64,000 bases of DNA from an uncultured Planctomycetota bacterium (GTDB lineage: Bacteria; Planctomycetota; Phycisphaerae; Tepidisphaerales; Tepidisphaeraceae). Within the stretch, counting starts at the first letter, position 1; the number at the start of each line of letters is the position of its first letter. The notes under the pieces are model-generated. The model ran no database searches, was not told the origin of the DNA, and saw nothing but the letters and a program-made list of their open reading frames with translations. Positions 30,041 to 37,660 of the stretch are shown in pieces. The DNA lies in assembly GCA_963841915.1 (NCBI GenBank), contig CAWJEN010000006.1, positions 1 to 64,000 of the forward strand, read 5' to 3'. A program made the translations under genes and the position numbers.

Positions 30041-30443
30041 CACGCCGCCAGTCGCCTCGGCTCGGTGCCACGGTTCGAGCCACCTTCCGAGGTGGGCAAA
30101 CCGTGTCGACAATCGGCCTTCGAACGTTGGTGTCTCAATGCAAAGGGCCGGAACCCGACACGGCTTGCCCGCCGCAGACGGCGGCTCAAGCCGTGGCACC
30201 AACCATCCCCCCGTACACCCGCTCACTCACGCCGCCAGTCGCTTCGGCTCGGTGCCACGGTTTGAGCCACCTTCCGAGGTGGGCAAACCGTGTCGACAAT
30301 CGGCCTTCGAACGTTGGTGTTTCAAGGCAAAGGGCCGGAACCCGACACGGCTTGCCCGCCGCAGACGGCGGCTCAAGCCGTGGCACCAATCATCCCCCCG
30401 TACACCCGCTCACTCACGCCGCCAGTCGCTTCGGCTCGGTGCC
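30041..30443. repeat. 187-bp tandem repeat (two full units plus 29 bp), each unit containing an inverted pair of GGTGCCACGG-type REP palindromes
   Basis: Units start at 30041, 30228 and 30415; ends GGTGCCACGGTT(C/T)GAGCC / GGCTCAAGCCGTGGCACC. Confidence 0.95.
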
Positions 30444-31820
30444 CGCCGTCGGCAGCCCAAGCGTCTCGCCCGCCGGAAGCATCGTCCGACGCACGTCGTG
30501 CTTCGGCGTCGGCAGTGCCGCCAACTCGGGGCGTTCGTGCCAGCGATCCCGCAGCTCGCGGGCCATGGCCGTCAGACGCGGGTCGATCGGCTTCTCGACC
30601 CTTCTGGCCGTCTTCCGCTGTTTCTTCGGCTTCACCACGACCGGCTCCGGCAACGCGTCGACCATGGTCGCATCGTCCGGGATGAACCACATGCTGCCGG
30701 TGCTGGCGTGCTGCTCCCGCAGGATCATCTCCCGCGTCATCAGGCGTTTGCCGTCCTGCCACAGGTGGCCGTCGCGGGCCTCGATGCCGTCGGGGTAACG
30801 CAACATCGGCGGCGAAAACGCTGGGTCATCGTCCTTCTGGCTCGCTGCGAGCCCTGAGCGTGAGCGAGGGGTCTGCGTCGATCCGCCAGAACCCGCTCGC
30901 TCACGCTCGGGGCTCGCATCGGTCAATTGCTTTGCGTCGAAGGTGCAATCTTCCTCCTCCGTCTCCGGCAACACGATCGGCAGCACGTCCTGCCAGCTCG
31001 TGCCCGGCGGCATCGGGAAGACCAGTCGGTCCGCCCGCAAGACGCCGCCGCCGGTCTGGTGCGGGAACCAGTGGGCGATCGGGTCGTCCTGCCCGCGGAT
31101 CTTCTTCTGCCAGAAGAGGTGCGGACGGCCGTCGTCGCCGCCGCTGCCGTCCTTCTTCTTGCCCTTGCGTTTGCCCGTGCGGAAGGCGATCGGCACGAAC
31201 CCCATGGCCTCCCAGAAATGGTTGGCCGCCAGGTCCTGGGCGCACCAGCACGAGTAGAGCCGACACCCGTAGGCACTGCGGTCGAACTGCGCCTGGAGCA
31301 ACGCCGCCGCCACGAGCGACCGCCGGGCCTGCGGGGCGACGCACAGCTGCGTGACGTACCCGACCTCGTCCCGCTTGAAGTACCGGTCGGCCGCGATGAG
31401 GTAGGCCAGCGGGGTTCGTGACGAACCGCGACCCTCACCCTCCGCCACCAGGATCTGCCGCAGCTCCAGCTTGCCCCGCAACGCCATCATCGGCAGGAAC
31501 GAGACCGCCGCCCGGTGCTGCTTCTGCAGCTCGTCGATCCAGGGCAGATCGGCCTCCGTCGCGGGGCGGATGTGAAAGTTCTCGCCCGCTTCCCCCCGCG
31601 GCACGATGGCCGTGCCCGGCGCCATCTCGCCCGCACGACGGACGTCCATCAGCCGCCCGCCCGCGTCGGCCGAGCCCGCCACCGTCGTCGTCGTCACGAG
31701 GACGTCCGACGCCACCCCGCCGTCGCCCGTTCCGTCAACCACGCCGGGAGCGGGACGCGGCGTGGCGTCGTCGCGGGAGCTTGGGCTGACGGGGGCGGGG
31801 ACGGGCGGATCACAACGCAT
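30414..31820 (-). CDS. GNAT family N-acetyltransferase with C-terminal extension (start uncertain, 31649-31970)
   Basis: IRPATEADL, TQLCVAPQARR, CAQDLAANHFWEAMGF. Confidence 0.8.
   Translation of the reverse strand: MRCDPPVPAPVSPSSRDDATPRPAPGVVDGTGDGGVASDVLVTTTTVAGSADAGGRLMDVRRAGEMAPGTAIVPRGEAGENFHIRPATEADLPWIDELQKQHRAAVSFLPMMALRGKLELRQILVAEGEGRGSSRTPLAYLIAADRYFKRDEVGYVTQLCVAPQARRSLVAAALLQAQFDRSAYGCRLYSCWCAQDLAANHFWEAMGFVPIAFRTGKRKGKKKDGSGGDDGRPHLFWQKKIRGQDDPIAHWFPHQTGGGVLRADRLVFPMPPGTSWQDVLPIVLPETEEEDCTFDAKQLTDASPERERAGSGGSTQTPRSRSGLAASQKDDDPAFSPPMLRYPDGIEARDGHLWQDGKRLMTREMILREQHASTGSMWFIPDDATMVDALPEPVVVKPKKQRKTARRVEKPIDPRLTAMARELRDRWHERPELAALPTPKHDVRRTMLPAGETLGLPTAGTEPKRLAA
30846..30918. 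repeat. REP-like palindrome lying in frame inside the GNAT gene
   Basis: TGCGAGCCCTGAGCGTGAGCGA ... TCGCTCACGCTCGGGGCTCGCA, 22-bp arms with 1 mismatch. Confidence 0.8.
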
Positions 31821-32296
31821 GTCCCCTCTATCGGCCAACCGACGTGCACCCACACACACACCCCCACACACCCGAAGCCACGCCACGCCGCCGACGACTC
31901 CCGCGCCCCCCCCCGCCTGCCGCCCGCCCGTCGCCCGGTCCGAGAAGATCGCCGCTGCCCGTACCAGCACCGGCGATGAACGGCCGAGCCCCGCCTCAAA
32001 CCGCCCGCCCGTCCGAGAAAAAGACCCTCGCCACCCCTGCCGCCCGCCCCCGCTGCGCCTTGTCGGACCCCGCCGCCCGACGTCGACGAAGTACGTCGCG
32101 CCTCCGCCCGACCTGCGCCCCTCGCCACACGACCGACCGCACCCGACATCGAGGCCAAAAACAGACCCGCGCCCCGCCCGACCTGCCCGCGCACCGCCCG
32201 CGCCGCTCCCCGCCTCAACATGATCGGACGCACCAAACCCGCCCCCGCCGCGCTATCGGACACAATGGGCACCCCAGACCGCGCGCATGACGGCTT

Positions 32297-32486
32297 AAAG
32301 AGCGCTCTTTCAACTTCAAAGAGCGCTCTTCGAAGTTGCAAGCGCGCTCTTTGAGTTCGAAAGAGCGCTCTTTGAAGTCGCAACTGCGCTCTTTTAAGTC
32401 GCAAGAGCGCTCTTTGAATCTCGAAGAGCGCCCTTCGAGGTCGAAAAGAGCGCACGATCGAGTCGAAAGAGCGCGCTTGCAACGCC
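32297..32486. repeat. Array of nine ~21-bp units with palindromic core AAAGAGCGCTCTTT
   Basis: Units at 32297, 32318, 32339, 32360, 32381, 32402, 32423, 32444, 32466. Confidence 0.92.
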
Positions 32487-32616
32487 AAAGATCGAACTTC
32501 AGCCGGCCATTCCCACGCATGGCACGATCGGGTGCCAGGTATAGCGACCCGACGTGTCGTCACACCCGGCGAGGATGCAGTCACACCCGGCCCAGCCGTT
32601 AAAGTCAAAGGAGAAG

Positions 32617-33070: not shown

Positions 33071-33141
33071 GGGTGCCACGGCATCCTTGCCGTGCGGTGT
33101 GATCGCGACGCTCCCGCCACTACAGGGTTGCAGTGGCACCC
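33071..33141. repeat. Inverted pair of GGGTGCCAC-type REP palindromes
   Basis: GGGTGCCACGGCatccttGCCGTG ... CCACTaCAgggtTGCAGTGGCACCC. Confidence 0.7.
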
Positions 33142-33179
33142 GGCAAACAGCGACCGACTGAACGTCGTCCGGCGTAGTC

Positions 33180-33252
33180 GTAGGGTGTGCTTCAGCACAC
33201 CATGAGGCTCAAGCACCGCTCCCCCAGCGTGGTGTGCTGAAGCACACCCTAC
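33180..33252. repeat. GTAG-family REP doublet (REPIN)
   Basis: GTAGGGTGTGCTTCAGCACACC ... GGTGTGCTGAAGCACACCCTAC, perfect 22-bp inverted pair. Confidence 0.92.
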
Positions 33253-33346: not shown

Positions 33347-33415
33347 GTAGGGTGGGCTTCAGCCCACCATCCGAACCCCGCCACTCCGCCGATGGTGGGC
33401 TGAAGCCCACCCTAC
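33347..33415. repeat. GTAG-family REP doublet (REPIN)
   Basis: GTAGGGTGGGCTTCAGCCCACC ... GGTGGGCTGAAGCCCACCCTAC. Confidence 0.92.
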
Positions 33416-33435: not shown

Positions 33436-33957
33436 ATGAGCTCCGCTGACGACCTCTCGTTCGAACACGGCGACATCAACGCACTCCGCAACCTCGGTGT
33501 TGATGTTGAACGTTTGAACGATTACGACTTCCTACTTCTTCCTGAGAACCTCCGAGAGGCTGGATCGAGGGAGGAACTGTATGATGCTGGCTCCAGCATC
33601 AATCTTGCCAAATCTCTTCGAGCTGAGGGAGCAAAGGTCGCAACGTCGTATGACCTGACTCCGGAGGCACGAACGCTGGAGCGGCGAGGTGCTGAACTCT
33701 GGTTCGGCACCGTATGGGTCATGAGCGCCGTCGCTCTCCCGCTCGCAATCTCTGTGCTCGCGAACATGATTACGGGGTGGCAAGCATCGCGCATCGCCAG
33801 CAAAGATGGGAAGGGGATCATGCGGACAAACGTCAAAATCCGCCTCAAACGAGGCGACAATATAGTCAACATAGACTTCGATGGTGATCCCGAAGCATTG
33901 GTTGATGTTTTGGAAGGGTTGAAATCAGGCAAGTCTTCTAAAAATGGCAGAGACTGA
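33436..33957 (+). CDS. Hypothetical single-TM protein, first gene of a lower-GC two-gene operon
   Basis: ATG 33436 preceded by TACAAT (33421-33426); hydrophobic LWFGTVWVMSAVALPLAISVLANMI; the upstream part of the listed ORF is REP sequence. Confidence 0.75.
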   Translation: MSSADDLSFEHGDINALRNLGVDVERLNDYDFLLLPENLREAGSREELYDAGSSINLAKSLRAEGAKVATSYDLTPEARTLERRGAELWFGTVWVMSAVALPLAISVLANMITGWQASRIASKDGKGIMRTNVKIRLKRGDNIVNIDFDGDPEALVDVLEGLKSGKSSKNGRD

Positions 33958-34678
33958 ATTCGACGACGTCGTGCGCTTCTTTGAGGAGTCTGCTAAAAAG
34001 TTCTGGAAGGAGATCGAGGCTGGAAATACGTGGCAAGCGCGGTTGGCGGCGTCATCTTTTGTCCAGTACATTGCAGACCGCGTTTCAATGGATACGTCGG
34101 AGACAAGCGAATATTGCCACGAGCACTTGCTCGCGGTACTCCTGGCTGCGCACCGCGATTTTGTCGATTGCTTCGAGGTGATCAAGTGTCCGAACGCTCG
34201 TCTTGATTTGATCGAGTTTGCTTGGTGTCGCCTAATGGACACGATGGATCGGATCGCAGTCGCGCGAAGTGGATTGGCAGGCTCCATGATTGACCGGATT
34301 GTGAAGCAGGCTGAATCAGCTCTCATTTACTTTGAAAAGCGATTCGGACGGGGCTTATTCGCAAGCCCCGAAATTTTTGCCGGAGTAGAAATTTGTACGA
34401 TATGCGGACGCGACTTTCGAGCTTGCGAGCATCAGGTTGGCTACCTCTACGATGGCAAGCGTTGCCGACGTAAAGCCGATGCAATCGAAGTTCGCTCCAT
34501 CTCGATCGTAAAGGTTCCGGTAGATCTTCGGTGTCGGATATGGCCGTGGAACTTCGACTACAGCACAGGCCGTTTCACAACCTGCGTATTAGCCGCTTTT
34601 GATCCCGACGATCTCTCGCCTCAACGCGACCGACCCGCTGGCTCATCGACAGAAGGCGTAAGTGCGTGCGATGGGTAG
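33944..34678 (+). CDS. Hypothetical protein with Zn-binding motif CxxC-x6-CxH-x9-C
   Basis: 14-bp overlap with upstream gene; helical N-terminus then FASPE...CTICGRDFRACEHQVGYLYDGKRC...SISIVKVP. Confidence 0.78.
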   Translation: MAETEFDDVVRFFEESAKKFWKEIEAGNTWQARLAASSFVQYIADRVSMDTSETSEYCHEHLLAVLLAAHRDFVDCFEVIKCPNARLDLIEFAWCRLMDTMDRIAVARSGLAGSMIDRIVKQAESALIYFEKRFGRGLFASPEIFAGVEICTICGRDFRACEHQVGYLYDGKRCRRKADAIEVRSISIVKVPVDLRCRIWPWNFDYSTGRFTTCVLAAFDPDDLSPQRDRPAGSSTEGVSACDG

Positions 34679-34779: not shown

Positions 34780-34961
34780 ATGGAAGCCCCGCACGATCCG
34801 TTCGCCGACAAGATCGTCGAGCAGGCCAATACCTTCGATGACGTCCTCCTGCTGCCTCAACGCAGCGATTTCACGCCGGCCGACGCGATGTCCGCACCCG
34901 CCTGACGCGGCGGGTAACGCTCAACATCCCGCTCGTGTCGGCCCCGATGGACACCGTCACC
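34780..34961 (+). pseudogene. guaB: 5' fragment of IMP dehydrogenase (about 60 codons, frameshift near 34887)
   Basis: MEAPHDPFADKIVEQANTFDDVLLLPQRSDFTPADA / DVRTRLTRRVTLNIPLVSAPMDTVT matches the GuaB N-terminus (TFDDVLL.P, LNIPLVSA.MDTVT); homology then stops. Confidence 0.85.
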
Positions 34962-35026
34962 CATCATCGCGGTCTCCCGCCCGGATCGACGTCCAAACAA
35001 ACCATCTCGGTGATCGAATCGTTCCA

Positions 35027-35052
35027 CCACGACACTGCGTGTCGTGGCACCC
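35027..35052. repeat. Single GGGTGCCAC-type REP (reverse orientation)
   Basis: CCACGACAC-tgc-GTGTCGTGG followed by CACCC. Confidence 0.65.
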
Positions 35053-35169
35053 GGCACCACCGCCGTACATCGTGCGTCGGCACGACGCGACAGAGCACCC
35101 GTCGCGCCGAAGGAAGACCTACTGGACTAGCCAGCCGGCCGAGAATGCATTAACATCCTCTAACCTGCC

Positions 35170-36465
35170 ATGGCCAATGCTAAGAACCTATTCTTCATTC
35201 GTCGTCTGGAGCTAGAATCACTATGGGGCCATCAGGATTATGACCTTCATTTTCACGATGATGTGAATGTCATCATCGGGCCGAATGCGTCGGGCAAGAC
35301 TACTCTCATCAAGCTGCTTCACGATCTAATTAGTGGTAATGCAGATCGACTAGTCGTCATGCCATTCAAGAACGCAACGGTTGAGCTTGCGTCGTTCGAC
35401 GACGGATCAGCTCGTCTGTTGCGTGTCGACCGCAGCGAAGAGAAAACTACATTCCGGCTCGACGATCAGAAGATCAGTGTTCCCTTCGGTTGGTCAGATG
35501 ACCAGAGATTCCTGTTTGATAGCGATCCTGAACGCTTGCGGCGGCGAATGCCGAGGAAACATTATGAACTTCTGCATACGTTGAGGACGATGGTCAGGTC
35601 AGTATGGCTTCCGGTTTCGCGTCGGTTACCAATCAGCTACGAGGAAGACGGGGCCCGGGCGCCGCTACATCGTCGACCACTAGAGTCGGTCGATGAGTCT
35701 CTGTCTTCTCTTCTTAACGACCTTCGCAATTACGCACAAACCCTCAATTCGCGACTTGCTGATTTGCGGAAGGATTTTCAGCGACACGCCTTAGAAAATA
35801 TTCTGTATGACGAGAAGCACGACAAATTTAGTCACAAGTCAAACGCTACAACGCTCACTGAAGGGGACGAGAGGCAGCTTCTTCAGGCTTATCAAGACGT
35901 CGGACTTTCGACTACCGACATGACGGCGAGAGTGCGAAAACATTTCAATGCAGCCAGAGAGGCAGTCAAGAGCCTCGAACAGGAGAAGGAGGGGCTTGAC
36001 ATTGACGATGTACTTGTTCTCCCGCTCATCGCTCGTACAAGGGCTCTTATTGGTTACGCGCACGAGCTAGAAGAGCGTCGCCTTGAACTTTTCAAACCTA
36101 TAACCCTTTATGCAGAGACCGTCTCCGGCTTTCTTAGCGACAAAGCAGTATCAGTGACCGGCAACGGTGACCTGTTCGTTGTACCGCGCCGAGATGAGTC
36201 TGGCCCCGTCGATTGGCGTCACCTCTCTTCAGGAGAGAAGCAGATCCTCATCCTTTTAACTCAGGCGTTGATCTCGTCAGGCACGAACACGGTTTATGTA
36301 GCTGACGAGCCCGAGCTGTCTTTGCACGTGACCTGGCAGGAAAAGCTTCTGAAGTCGCTTACAAGTCTTGCTGGACGATGCCAGTTCATTATCGCGACGC
36401 ACTCTCCCGATGTCGTGGCAGGGTTTGGCGATAAGGTCATTGATCTTGCGGAGGTCCGTCGTTGA
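35170..36465 (+). CDS. AAA_15/AAA_21-type ABC ATPase, AriA-like
   Basis: Walker A GPNASGKT, signature LSSGEKQ, Walker B VYVADEPE, H-loop ATHSP; visibly lower GC than flanks. Confidence 0.9.
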   Translation: MANAKNLFFIRRLELESLWGHQDYDLHFHDDVNVIIGPNASGKTTLIKLLHDLISGNADRLVVMPFKNATVELASFDDGSARLLRVDRSEEKTTFRLDDQKISVPFGWSDDQRFLFDSDPERLRRRMPRKHYELLHTLRTMVRSVWLPVSRRLPISYEEDGARAPLHRRPLESVDESLSSLLNDLRNYAQTLNSRLADLRKDFQRHALENILYDEKHDKFSHKSNATTLTEGDERQLLQAYQDVGLSTTDMTARVRKHFNAAREAVKSLEQEKEGLDIDDVLVLPLIARTRALIGYAHELEERRLELFKPITLYAETVSGFLSDKAVSVTGNGDLFVVPRRDESGPVDWRHLSSGEKQILILLTQALISSGTNTVYVADEPELSLHVTWQEKLLKSLTSLAGRCQFIIATHSPDVVAGFGDKVIDLAEVRR

Positions 36466-37337
36466 GCTTTACCCGAACGCCAGCTGGTCTAGTCGAGAAG
36501 TGGCGGTTTCATCAGCTCCCCACGGTCTGGGTGGAGGGAGACGATGACTTGGCTTTCTACGAATTACCGTTACGCGGCGCAGGCTGTCGGATGGAGCGTT
36601 TGCACGGGAAGGAAAATGCCGATGCGCTCATTAAAGGCTTAAAGACGTTCAATTATCCTTACGTAGTTGTTCTCGACGGCGACTATGCTTTCCTAGACCG
36701 CCAGCGCACGCCGCATCGACGGGTCGTCAGACTTCAGCGTTATGCTGTCGAAAACTACCTTTGGGAGCCGGATGATGTCAATCGGGCCTGTTGCCGTTTC
36801 GCTCGCAGCGAGGTTGAGAAGGACTTATGTCTCGATCTGATGAAGGATGTTCAAAAGCAAGTCGATGAGCATTTGCGAGAGTGTGTTGAGCTTGACATCG
36901 CCGCACGCTTGATGATTACGCCACCAAAAGTTCTCCCAGATCGTATCGAGCCACTTCTCGAAAATCAGAGTGTCTCAAAGATCAGCCAGACTCGTGCCGA
37001 CCAAGCTCGGTTGGCAGCGAAGACGCTCGTTGATAATTCGCTAGCTGAACAGACCCGCGAACTTCTCACGCGTTTTCTGTCGTCTCGATCAATAATGCAC
37101 ATCTTGCGAGGTCATCTTGTATTAGGCCTTCTTCGACGGGTCATTTCAGAGGCGGTCAGAAGCGAGTCTACTTCAGCTCCTGTCCTTCACGAGAAAGCAG
37201 TGTTTGAGATTCTGATCGACCGTGTCTGGACGCTACCGCTTTCAGCTGACCATCGGAAGCTCAGGAACAATCTGCGTCGTAAGGTTCGAGAGGCACGCCT
37301 TGAACTTCAAAAGCAGCGAGAGAGCGGCATGAGCTAG
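36462..37337 (+). CDS. DUF4435/TOPRIM-like putative nuclease, AriB-like
   Basis: VWVEGDDD, VVVLDGDY, RYAVENYL, LRGH; start overlaps the ATPase stop (TTGA). Confidence 0.82.
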   Translation: MSFTRTPAGLVEKWRFHQLPTVWVEGDDDLAFYELPLRGAGCRMERLHGKENADALIKGLKTFNYPYVVVLDGDYAFLDRQRTPHRRVVRLQRYAVENYLWEPDDVNRACCRFARSEVEKDLCLDLMKDVQKQVDEHLRECVELDIAARLMITPPKVLPDRIEPLLENQSVSKISQTRADQARLAAKTLVDNSLAEQTRELLTRFLSSRSIMHILRGHLVLGLLRRVISEAVRSESTSAPVLHEKAVFEILIDRVWTLPLSADHRKLRNNLRRKVREARLELQKQRESGMS

Positions 37338-37341
37338 TCGT

Positions 37342-37410
37342 GTAGGGTTACCTACAGACCACCAGCGGAGGTGCTTCGGCCGGCGGTTGATGTGCTGAAG
37401 CCCATGCTAC
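37342..37410. repeat. Degenerate GTAG-family REP doublet
   Basis: GTAGGGTtacCTaCAGaCCACC ... GaTGTGCTGAAGCCCAtgCTAC, starting 5 bp after the DUF4435 stop. Confidence 0.75.
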
Positions 37411-37559
37411 TTGAGGTGCCTGGCGGTTGGGGGAGGTGATAAATCGAAGGGACGCCGCAGGCTCATGCAACGATCCGCATGGGCCGACTTGTCGTCTTGA
37501 GGCGATGGACCGGCCTTGGGGTCGCGTCGCCCGACCCTCCGTTACTCAAGGAGTGCTCC

Positions 37560-37616
37560 GTGGCGACACGAAACTATTTGCCCCAGGCCGATGAAGCCCT
37601 CAGCCTTGTGGCCTAG
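37560..37616 (+). pseudogene. Truncated gene start MATRNYLPQADEALSLVA*
   Basis: AAGGAG RBS, GTG start; resembles the N-terminus of the family of the 38531 gene; interrupted by a 25-bp duplication and a REP. Confidence 0.45.
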
Positions 37617-37660
37617 GCCGATGAAGCCCTCAGCCTTGTAGGGTGGGCTTCAGCCCACCA
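37585..37660. repeat. 25-bp direct duplication abutting a single GTAG REP
   Basis: AGGCCGATGAAGCCCTCAGCCTTGT at 37585 and 37615; GTAGGGTGGGCTTCAGCCCACCA at 37638-37660. Confidence 0.88.

Follow-up and report, generated by a model that had tools for sequence, protein, structure and literature searches.

A major theme in bacterial immunity is the death effector gated by a protease, and the proteases of such effectors named in the portions of the literature examined here are caspase-, trypsin-, subtilisin- or Lon-type. Among the closest described systems is EACC1-caspase (Kaur et al. 2020, PMC7159879; Evans et al. 2025, 10.1101/2025.11.14.688446), which, going by the parts of those reports available, has a small 5' gene encoding one hydrophobic helix and a 3' protease gene, an arrangement that it shares with the pair of genes described here. 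A single cut by the partner caspase takes off an inhibitory segment at the N-terminus, leaving a C-terminal fragment that is toxic, permeabilises membranes and leaks liposomes (Evans et al. 2025, 10.1101/2025.11.14.688446, in the part available). Defence keyed to a late phage protease, also a shared feature, is reported in the accessible part of a preprint on CBASS activated by the phage prohead protease (10.64898/2026.03.04.709575). Finally, the zinc-knuckle phage prohead proteases (Peptidase_S78-like; phrog_16951), a clade exemplified by the ORF123 protease/scaffold of Bacillus phage 0305phi8-36 and by gp19 of phage G, have the same serine strand, CxxC..CxH..C knuckle, return strand, P loop and spacing as the second gene of the pair. 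Here we describe a real, widespread and apparently undescribed module, the best reading of which is a protease-gated membrane effector.

The two genes lie in the window, by which we mean the whole stretch of 64,000 nucleotides that was analysed, from an uncultured Planctomycetota bacterium. Gene 1 (33436-33957, +) encodes 173 aa and gene 2 (33944-34678, +) 244 aa, with an overlap of 14 nt; their GC contents of 0.536 and 0.533, against 0.642 for the whole window, bear out an earlier note on this DNA that had described two overlapping lower-GC genes. The same note had put them about 500 bp ahead of a PARIS-like operon, which does begin 491 bp downstream of gene 2 and comprises an AriA-like ABC ATPase (35170-36465, +; PADLOC AriA E 1e-38) and an AriB-like DUF4435/TOPRIM protein (36462-37337, +; AriB E 3e-8). 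PARIS adjoins the pair in the window but is a separate system, and the neighbours of the pair's homologs are varied. The genes had also been said to follow REPINs directly, which stands in part: GTAG inverted doublets are found at 33180-33252 (23-nt arms, 100% complementary) and 33347-33415 (25-nt arms, 100% complementary), the second ending about 20 bp before gene 1, and more copies lie at 37341-37660, the right edge of the low-GC island, but the repeats are rare, with seven copies at no more than two mismatches in the 3.63-Mb assembly, five of the seven around the island holding genes 1 and 2. A motif search, a weak test, found no RAYT transposase. Because the repeats are rare and there is no RAYT motif match, 'REP-like' is a safer label than 'REPIN'. 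It may be that doublets of this kind flag places where foreign genes have been captured.

Between the pair and the PARIS-like operon lies a frameshifted 5' fragment (34780-34975, +) that in three-frame translation resembles the start of an IMP dehydrogenase gene (guaB, named from the motif); similar DNA is present elsewhere in the same genome and in relatives, and the fragment is possibly an insertion scar. DNA of the pair itself was not among the matches listed in 30 relatives. Other features of this region are a second repeat of 13 nt (six exact genome copies) at 33133-33145 and 35044-35056, ahead of the pair and of the PARIS-like operon; an intergenic stretch at 32297-32500 in which a 21-nt unit with a palindromic core is repeated imperfectly in tandem about nine times; and a GNAT-domain ORF (30414-31970, -), parts of whose DNA have many similar copies in the genome and genus. 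The sole close copy of the REP-like doublet outside the island is in the region G000:C3:37454-38133, and about 110 bp past it is a 166-aa ORF with a GC content of 0.50 and hydrophobic stretches.

Gene 2 contains, exactly as it had been written down earlier, the motif FASPE-x7-CTICG-x5-CEH-x2-G-x2-YDG-x2-C...SISIVKVP, and a degenerate version of the pattern has one match in the window and none in 100 shuffles. A likeness of this segment to tailed-phage prohead proteases, proposed in the earlier note, proved well founded: in hhalign, gene 2 aligns with a set of 69 phage sequences at 98.7% (E 3e-16), over residues 122-199 only. Searches of gene 2 against Pfam, NCBIfam and PADLOC gave no match, and it matches phrog_16951 over residues 149-193 (E 4e-5). 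We aligned 125 gene-2 sequences (two queries and 123 near-full-length sequences among 150 matches listed); 101 of these match phrog_16951, and a few match PHROGs named 'head maturation protease'. A two-sequence gene-2 profile retrieved 660 representatives at E ≤1e-3, a number that may include phage proteases. When viral contigs were searched with a pattern of the gene-2 spacing, at least 120 matched, and a gene-2 helical profile had no hit on these contigs among the matches listed. A His motif occurs 40-85 residues before the Ser in 96 of the 107 viral matches listed that have room for it, the Ser context is SVG or SIG in 106 of the 120 viral matches listed, and the match in a Moorella phage lies in the gene after the portal, its segment matching 'prohead protease' and 'protease/scaffold' genes among 17 phage records. 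At L010, L015, L022, L042 and similar viral loci, some prohead-protease-like ORFs keep the Ser and knuckle, apparently without the Asp-His motif.

Profile comparison indicates that gene 2 keeps the Ser half of a prohead protease, with a helical bundle replacing the His-bearing half. Gene 2 does not appear to be a whole protease; its kinship with the prohead proteases extends to the Ser hairpin, the complete fold seems to be lacking, and the window's subtype has no conserved catalytic His. An AlphaFold model (pLDDT 92.3) has five helices over residues 3-134 (33950-34345, +), in agreement with the helical N-terminus noted previously and in the place of the His-bearing half, followed by only two long strands, at residues 138-151 and 176-189, which flank the Cys/His knuckle. 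By conservation and hhalign, residues 138-199 (34355-34540, +) span the Ser141 strand (Ser141 codon, 34364-34366, +), the knuckle, the return strand and the P192 loop; the predicted zinc knuckle, within 34355-34540 (+), is made of C151, C154, C161, H163 and C174, and from these residues would bind zinc. Fold matches of the helical bundle are generic, TPR- and Bro1-like (Z ≤11.3), and are not discriminating. With Foldseek, the gene 2 model has no PDB match at E 1e-3, which says nothing for a new fold, and its matches to BFVD prohead proteases are weak and partial (E 0.05-0.6). PDB sequence searches gave nothing significant, the best match (E 0.031) being to designed helical proteins, and there is no caspase family among the Pfam matches of the 125 gene-2 members. 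Weak matches to PDC-S12 or CBASS E2 models (best E 6e-9; PADLOC-DB 2.0) are seen for 32 of 71 homologs, and are perhaps due to a SEC-C motif in those sequences. One protein of 497 aa (P0118) consists of the gene-2 unit twice in tandem.

C151, C154, C161, H163 and Y169 are invariant in the 125-sequence alignment of gene 2, where 123 sequences have Ser141 and 123 have W94. All 71 aligned genome-locus rows, gathered with a search pattern that excluded Ser141, also carry this serine. At the third triad position, 185, on the return strand, 16 of the 125 sequences have E and 10 have H (E 18 and H 6 in the 71-row set). No conserved His precedes Ser141 in the window's subtype, where the region is all-helical in the model, and there is no conserved His besides H163, the next best column reaching 19/125. 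One explanation is that gene 2 is a self-sufficient if unusual serine protease, with its base hidden in its own chain or in the substrate, that infection switches on only allosterically, via the helical bundle. This agrees with the invariance of Ser141, with the two His columns of the SEC-C subtype (in 30 and 48 of 71 rows), with His being the commonest residue at the predicted P1 position of gene 1 (37 of 71), and with the complex model described below, whose interface includes gene-2 residues 105 and 216; the window's subtype also commonly has acidic residues near 102 and 222-223. However, no candidate base is common to all subtypes and the window's own subtype lacks those His residues, and we regard this explanation as unlikely.

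Gene 1 is predicted to encode a latent membrane effector with, in order, an N-terminal domain, a predicted cut site, a hydrophobic helix, a hairpin and a helix (33436-33957, +). The hydrophobic segment spans residues 90-108 (33703-33759, +), with a Kyte-Doolittle 19-residue mean of 1.98, and the mean is at least 1.6 in 62 of 71 gene-1 homologs. The description of gene 1 as one TM helix with a short beta-rich tail needs amending: there is one hydrophobic segment, but about 85 residues precede it, and it is followed by a predicted hairpin plus a helix. Gene 1 has no match in Pfam, NCBIfam or PADLOC, and PADLOC-DB 2.0 has 0 families for either window protein. The suggested comparison with EACC1-like TM components yields no profile match: none of 72 gene-1 family members matches EACC1 (PF19953) at E 0.05, and hhalign gives 2.3%, over the hairpin only, against an EACC1 set of up to 28 Streptomyces-order sequences with at least one in the wrong frame. 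Membership of gene 1 in the EACC1 family is not supported by these profile results. An Atlas score of 0.80 links gene 1 to a cluster with 22% EACC1, and is a lead only. A different proposal, that gene 1 supplies the N-terminal strands missing from the protease, is unsupported (hhalign 0.2%). Gene 1 does have the EACC1 layout, namely a single hydrophobic helix flanked by alpha/beta parts and encoded by the 5' gene of two, and by analogy the pair may work like EACC1-caspase while not being an EACC1 member by profile. Because there is no EACC1 profile match, pore formation by gene 1 is proposed by analogy.

A one-gene form of the system was found at six genome loci (L139, L157, L159, L179, L196 and L206), which encode proteins of about 270 aa. 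The N-terminal part of this fusion family matches gene 1 (hhalign 94.3%, E 1e-7, 96 columns). We found 38 relatives, five of which are labelled Peptidase_S78, and in an alignment of 39 sequences (five loci and 34 matches, with one duplicate and three short matches left out) all 39 have H160, S204 and E248, and K56-G57, just before the hydrophobic stretch, are conserved at 90% or more. In PDB searches with a model of the fusion (pLDDT 86.6, pTM 0.82), herpesvirus assemblins occupy ranks 1-3 over residues 150-267, with weak scores (Z 5.2, 4.0 and 3.5; rmsd 3.0 over 77 aligned residues for the top match), T4 gp21 is rank 7, and BFVD has 11 entries at E ≤1e-3, named prohead proteases among them; part of the hydrophobic stretch is modelled as strand, not helix. 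Through this family the gene-1 domain is tied to a protease with an intact triad. On the split-enzyme reading given below, the fusion, with all three triad residues, would represent the self-cutting ancestor. At L139 the gene after the fusion is a TIR-like PDC-S35, and the genome of L157 also holds a separate two-gene copy.

The two-gene form was modelled as a complex of gene 1 (residues 1-166) with gene 2 (residues 1-228), which scored 0.70, the best of three controls scoring 0.01; for these alignments, and roughly, a score of 0.70 is reached by 116 of 157 solved complexes and by two of 215 mismatched pairs. Between runs, 91% or more of the contacts are shared, and the partners have a pLDDT of 84 or higher. 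In the model, gene-1 residues 79-86, the predicted substrate strand (33670-33693, +), touch gene-2 residues 141-147 and 189-197, the contact pairs 80-146, 81-145 and 82-144 (gene 1-gene 2) define an antiparallel register, and gene-1 residues 55-63 and 70-72 lie under the zinc knuckle. In the cytomegalovirus protease, Ser135 pairs with P3. Because the register resembles that of the cytomegalovirus protease, gene-1 E82 would by extrapolation be P3, R84 would be P1 and G85 would be P1', and the predicted scissile bond of gene 1 is R84|G85, immediately ahead of the hydrophobic helix. The available part of a report on the cytomegalovirus enzyme describes a bound peptide that pairs with Ser135, at +3 from the catalytic Ser132, and with Arg165 (PMC11544290). 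The pose of our complex may reflect a resemblance to assemblin-peptide complexes already solved. A small residue (S, A or G) occupies position 85 in 66 of 71 gene-1 homologs, with only the G150 column more strongly small in the gene-1 alignment, and K56-G57 of the fusion aligns at or within one residue of R84|G85. The P1 residue varies (H 37, R 14, Y 6 and N 5 of 71), a width that is unusual for a strict protease site. We consider cleavage near 84|85 likely.

Given the fusion family and the complex model, gene 2 seems to relate to gene 1 as enzyme to substrate rather than by plain mimicry; the earlier note had proposed that gene 2 mimics or senses capsid maturation components and triggers the membrane protein as effector. 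A competing account is that gene 2 is a non-catalytic guard or decoy that masks the cut site like an antitoxin until a phage protein displaces it, whereupon the phage protease, or release itself, activates gene 1. The complex model, with gene 2 covering residues 79-86, is compatible with such masking, as are the absence of the catalytic His and the lack of conservation of the third residue, and phage prohead proteases are known, from the accessible portion of the CBASS preprint (10.64898/2026.03.04.709575), to be triggers that cut a host tripwire. A mask need not, however, keep a serine in 123/125 and 71/71 sequences, and the fusion keeps a full triad beside the same site; we consider a guard of this type quite unlikely.

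A pattern search of GTDB genomes returned at least 119 stretches, of which 80 with flanks were counted; those listed are one phage-type protease (L189), six fusions and 73 loci of the gene-2 type. After two of the 73 that begin at a contig edge were left out, gene 1 lies directly upstream of gene 2 in 69 of the 71 loci with room, among the matches listed, and the two exceptions (L135 and L142) match gene 2 only in the C-terminal part. At L184 the pair is present but its gene 2 is frameshifted. Another set of 37 viral matches consists of 35 phage-type proteases and two pairs. The reciprocal search, with a gene-1 profile alone on samples of 301, 401, 401 and 301 genomes plus five others, found 13 new loci, with gene 2 directly downstream in all 13, one of them frameshifted and one cut by a contig end. 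Pairwise identities of gene 1 and gene 2 are correlated (rho 0.75), with kin not being independent. The two genes, which the earlier note had put forward as a two-gene system, therefore co-occur in both directions (69/71 and 13/13), and gene order indicates that they are one conserved unit.

Carriage of the pair is patchy, at about 1% of sampled genomes, and spans bacteria and archaea; record titles include Methanobrevibacter, Halosimplex, Cenarchaeum, Bacteroidota, Bacillota, cyanobacteria, actinomycetes and proteobacteria. A pair is also present in the pleolipovirus provirus Humcor2, and its two locus tags do not occur in the available part of the Humcor2 paper (PMC7911831). Two IMG/VR viral contigs (L267 and L276) carry the full pair, and viruses may therefore spread it. 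The SEC-C-tailed subtype occurs in 211 plasmid records, 182 of them conjugative and mostly from Enterobacteriaceae, and gene 1 is present in both of the two SEC-C plasmid records checked. On an IncHI2 plasmid (L363:6091-12414), the pair comes after TPR and FRG-domain genes, is bracketed by two ISNCY transposases and adjoins an S-4TM putative pore-forming effector.

Genomic context was sampled at 64 of 68 pair loci, four near-duplicate or truncated loci having been dropped, with ORFs taken longest-first and cut at 520 aa. At E 1e-8, PADLOC families match 42 of 203 neighbouring ORFs within two genes of the pair (22/113 nearest and 20/90 second-nearest) and 18 of 140 sampled from the 189 ORFs at 4.5 kb or more. 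The background, 140 ORFs sampled from 182 in 15 spaced regions of the window's own genome, has one match in 140 (p 9e-10 for near versus background, with the ORFs not independent and the background being one genome). The surroundings of the homologs are enriched in defence genes, as had been anticipated for the pair (42/203 against 1/140 in one genome). A match is present within two ORFs at 33 of the 64 loci, and neighbours include ThsA, restriction-modification genes, GajA, LmuA, AbiEi, HerA, PD-T7-1 and PARIS, some of the matches being generic (radical SAM, kinase or ATPase). The fusions have less rich surroundings (4/50 ORFs; 2/6 loci). There is no significant difference between the nearest ORFs and the far ones (22/113 versus 18/140, p 0.17), and the lack of a significant fall-off with distance fits a further explanation, namely a mobile toxin-antitoxin or stress module that serves plasmid or element upkeep and has island neighbours only as co-mobile cargo. 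The plasmid records of the SEC-C homolog (182 of 211 conjugative) and the copy between two ISNCY transposases lean the same way. Yet the core of the module derives from a virus-specific enzyme, and the neighbours include restriction enzymes, ThsA, GajA, LmuA, AbiEi, PD-T7-1 and PARIS; we find a role solely in maintenance very improbable, and have good confidence that the pair is an anti-virus defence.

How the pair would act can be outlined from these observations. At rest, gene 2 would hold gene 1 in its substrate groove and be idle, as it seems to have no general base. Upon infection, a phage protein might complete or license the active site, in the simplest case the His-bearing half of the phage's own prohead protease, or else some other protein caught by the helical bundle. 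Gene 2 would then cut gene 1 at R84|G85, and the freed C-terminal fragment would insert in the membrane, like EACC1, so that the cell dies before progeny mature. We give somewhat better than an even chance to this overall account, an anti-virus self-destruct switch in which gene 2 grips gene 1 and cuts R84|G85 upon infection, freeing a likely membrane-damaging fragment. Against it is the absence of a conserved catalytic His in the window's subtype, with the third residue being Glu in only 16/125, and gene 2 may for these reasons never cut. The missing base may be provided in trans by a phage protein, be hidden in gene 2 or its substrate, or be needless if gene 2 is a guard. The most specific version, a split-enzyme sensor in which the cell keeps the serine half preloaded on a latent membrane toxin and the virus brings the histidine half, is doubtful, and it is difficult to see how strands could be exchanged with a phage barrel that has already folded; if this version is true, infection assembles the protease that kills the cell. 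There is thus a chance of a new sensing principle, and the residue-level predictions (Ser141 and 84|85 for the pair; H160/S204/E248 and K56|G57 for the fusion) make the self-destruct switch directly testable. The SEC-C subtype on conjugative enterobacterial plasmids could affect phage host range.

Full-text literature searches found no account of the pair, and large-screen tables, subscription papers or DefenseFinder models could carry it under another name. Rugutis, a single gene with an N-terminal SEC-C motif in the available part of its report (PMC11381338), was set aside by description alone. Neither 'prohead' nor 'assemblin' is used in the main text, as available, of Kaur et al. 2020 (PMC7159879) or of Evans et al. 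2025 (10.1101/2025.11.14.688446). The module seems to employ the head-maturation protease fold of the virus itself, mostly halved, with an effector family unmatched in the libraries searched. Gene 1 is longer than the EACC1 effector, at about 160-200 aa rather than about 107, and matches it neither in Pfam nor by profile, and the origin of its partner is an assemblin-type (prohead) serine protease instead of a caspase, usually without the His half and with no large sensor fusion. Unlike the phage proteases, gene 2 has a helical bundle instead of the N-terminal strands and His, and it adjoins gene 1 rather than lying between portal and capsid genes. Finally, in CBASS as described in the available part of that preprint, a host enzyme is a mere substrate and the signal is a cyclic nucleotide, whereas the pair has no cyclase and the host has taken up part or all of the protease itself.
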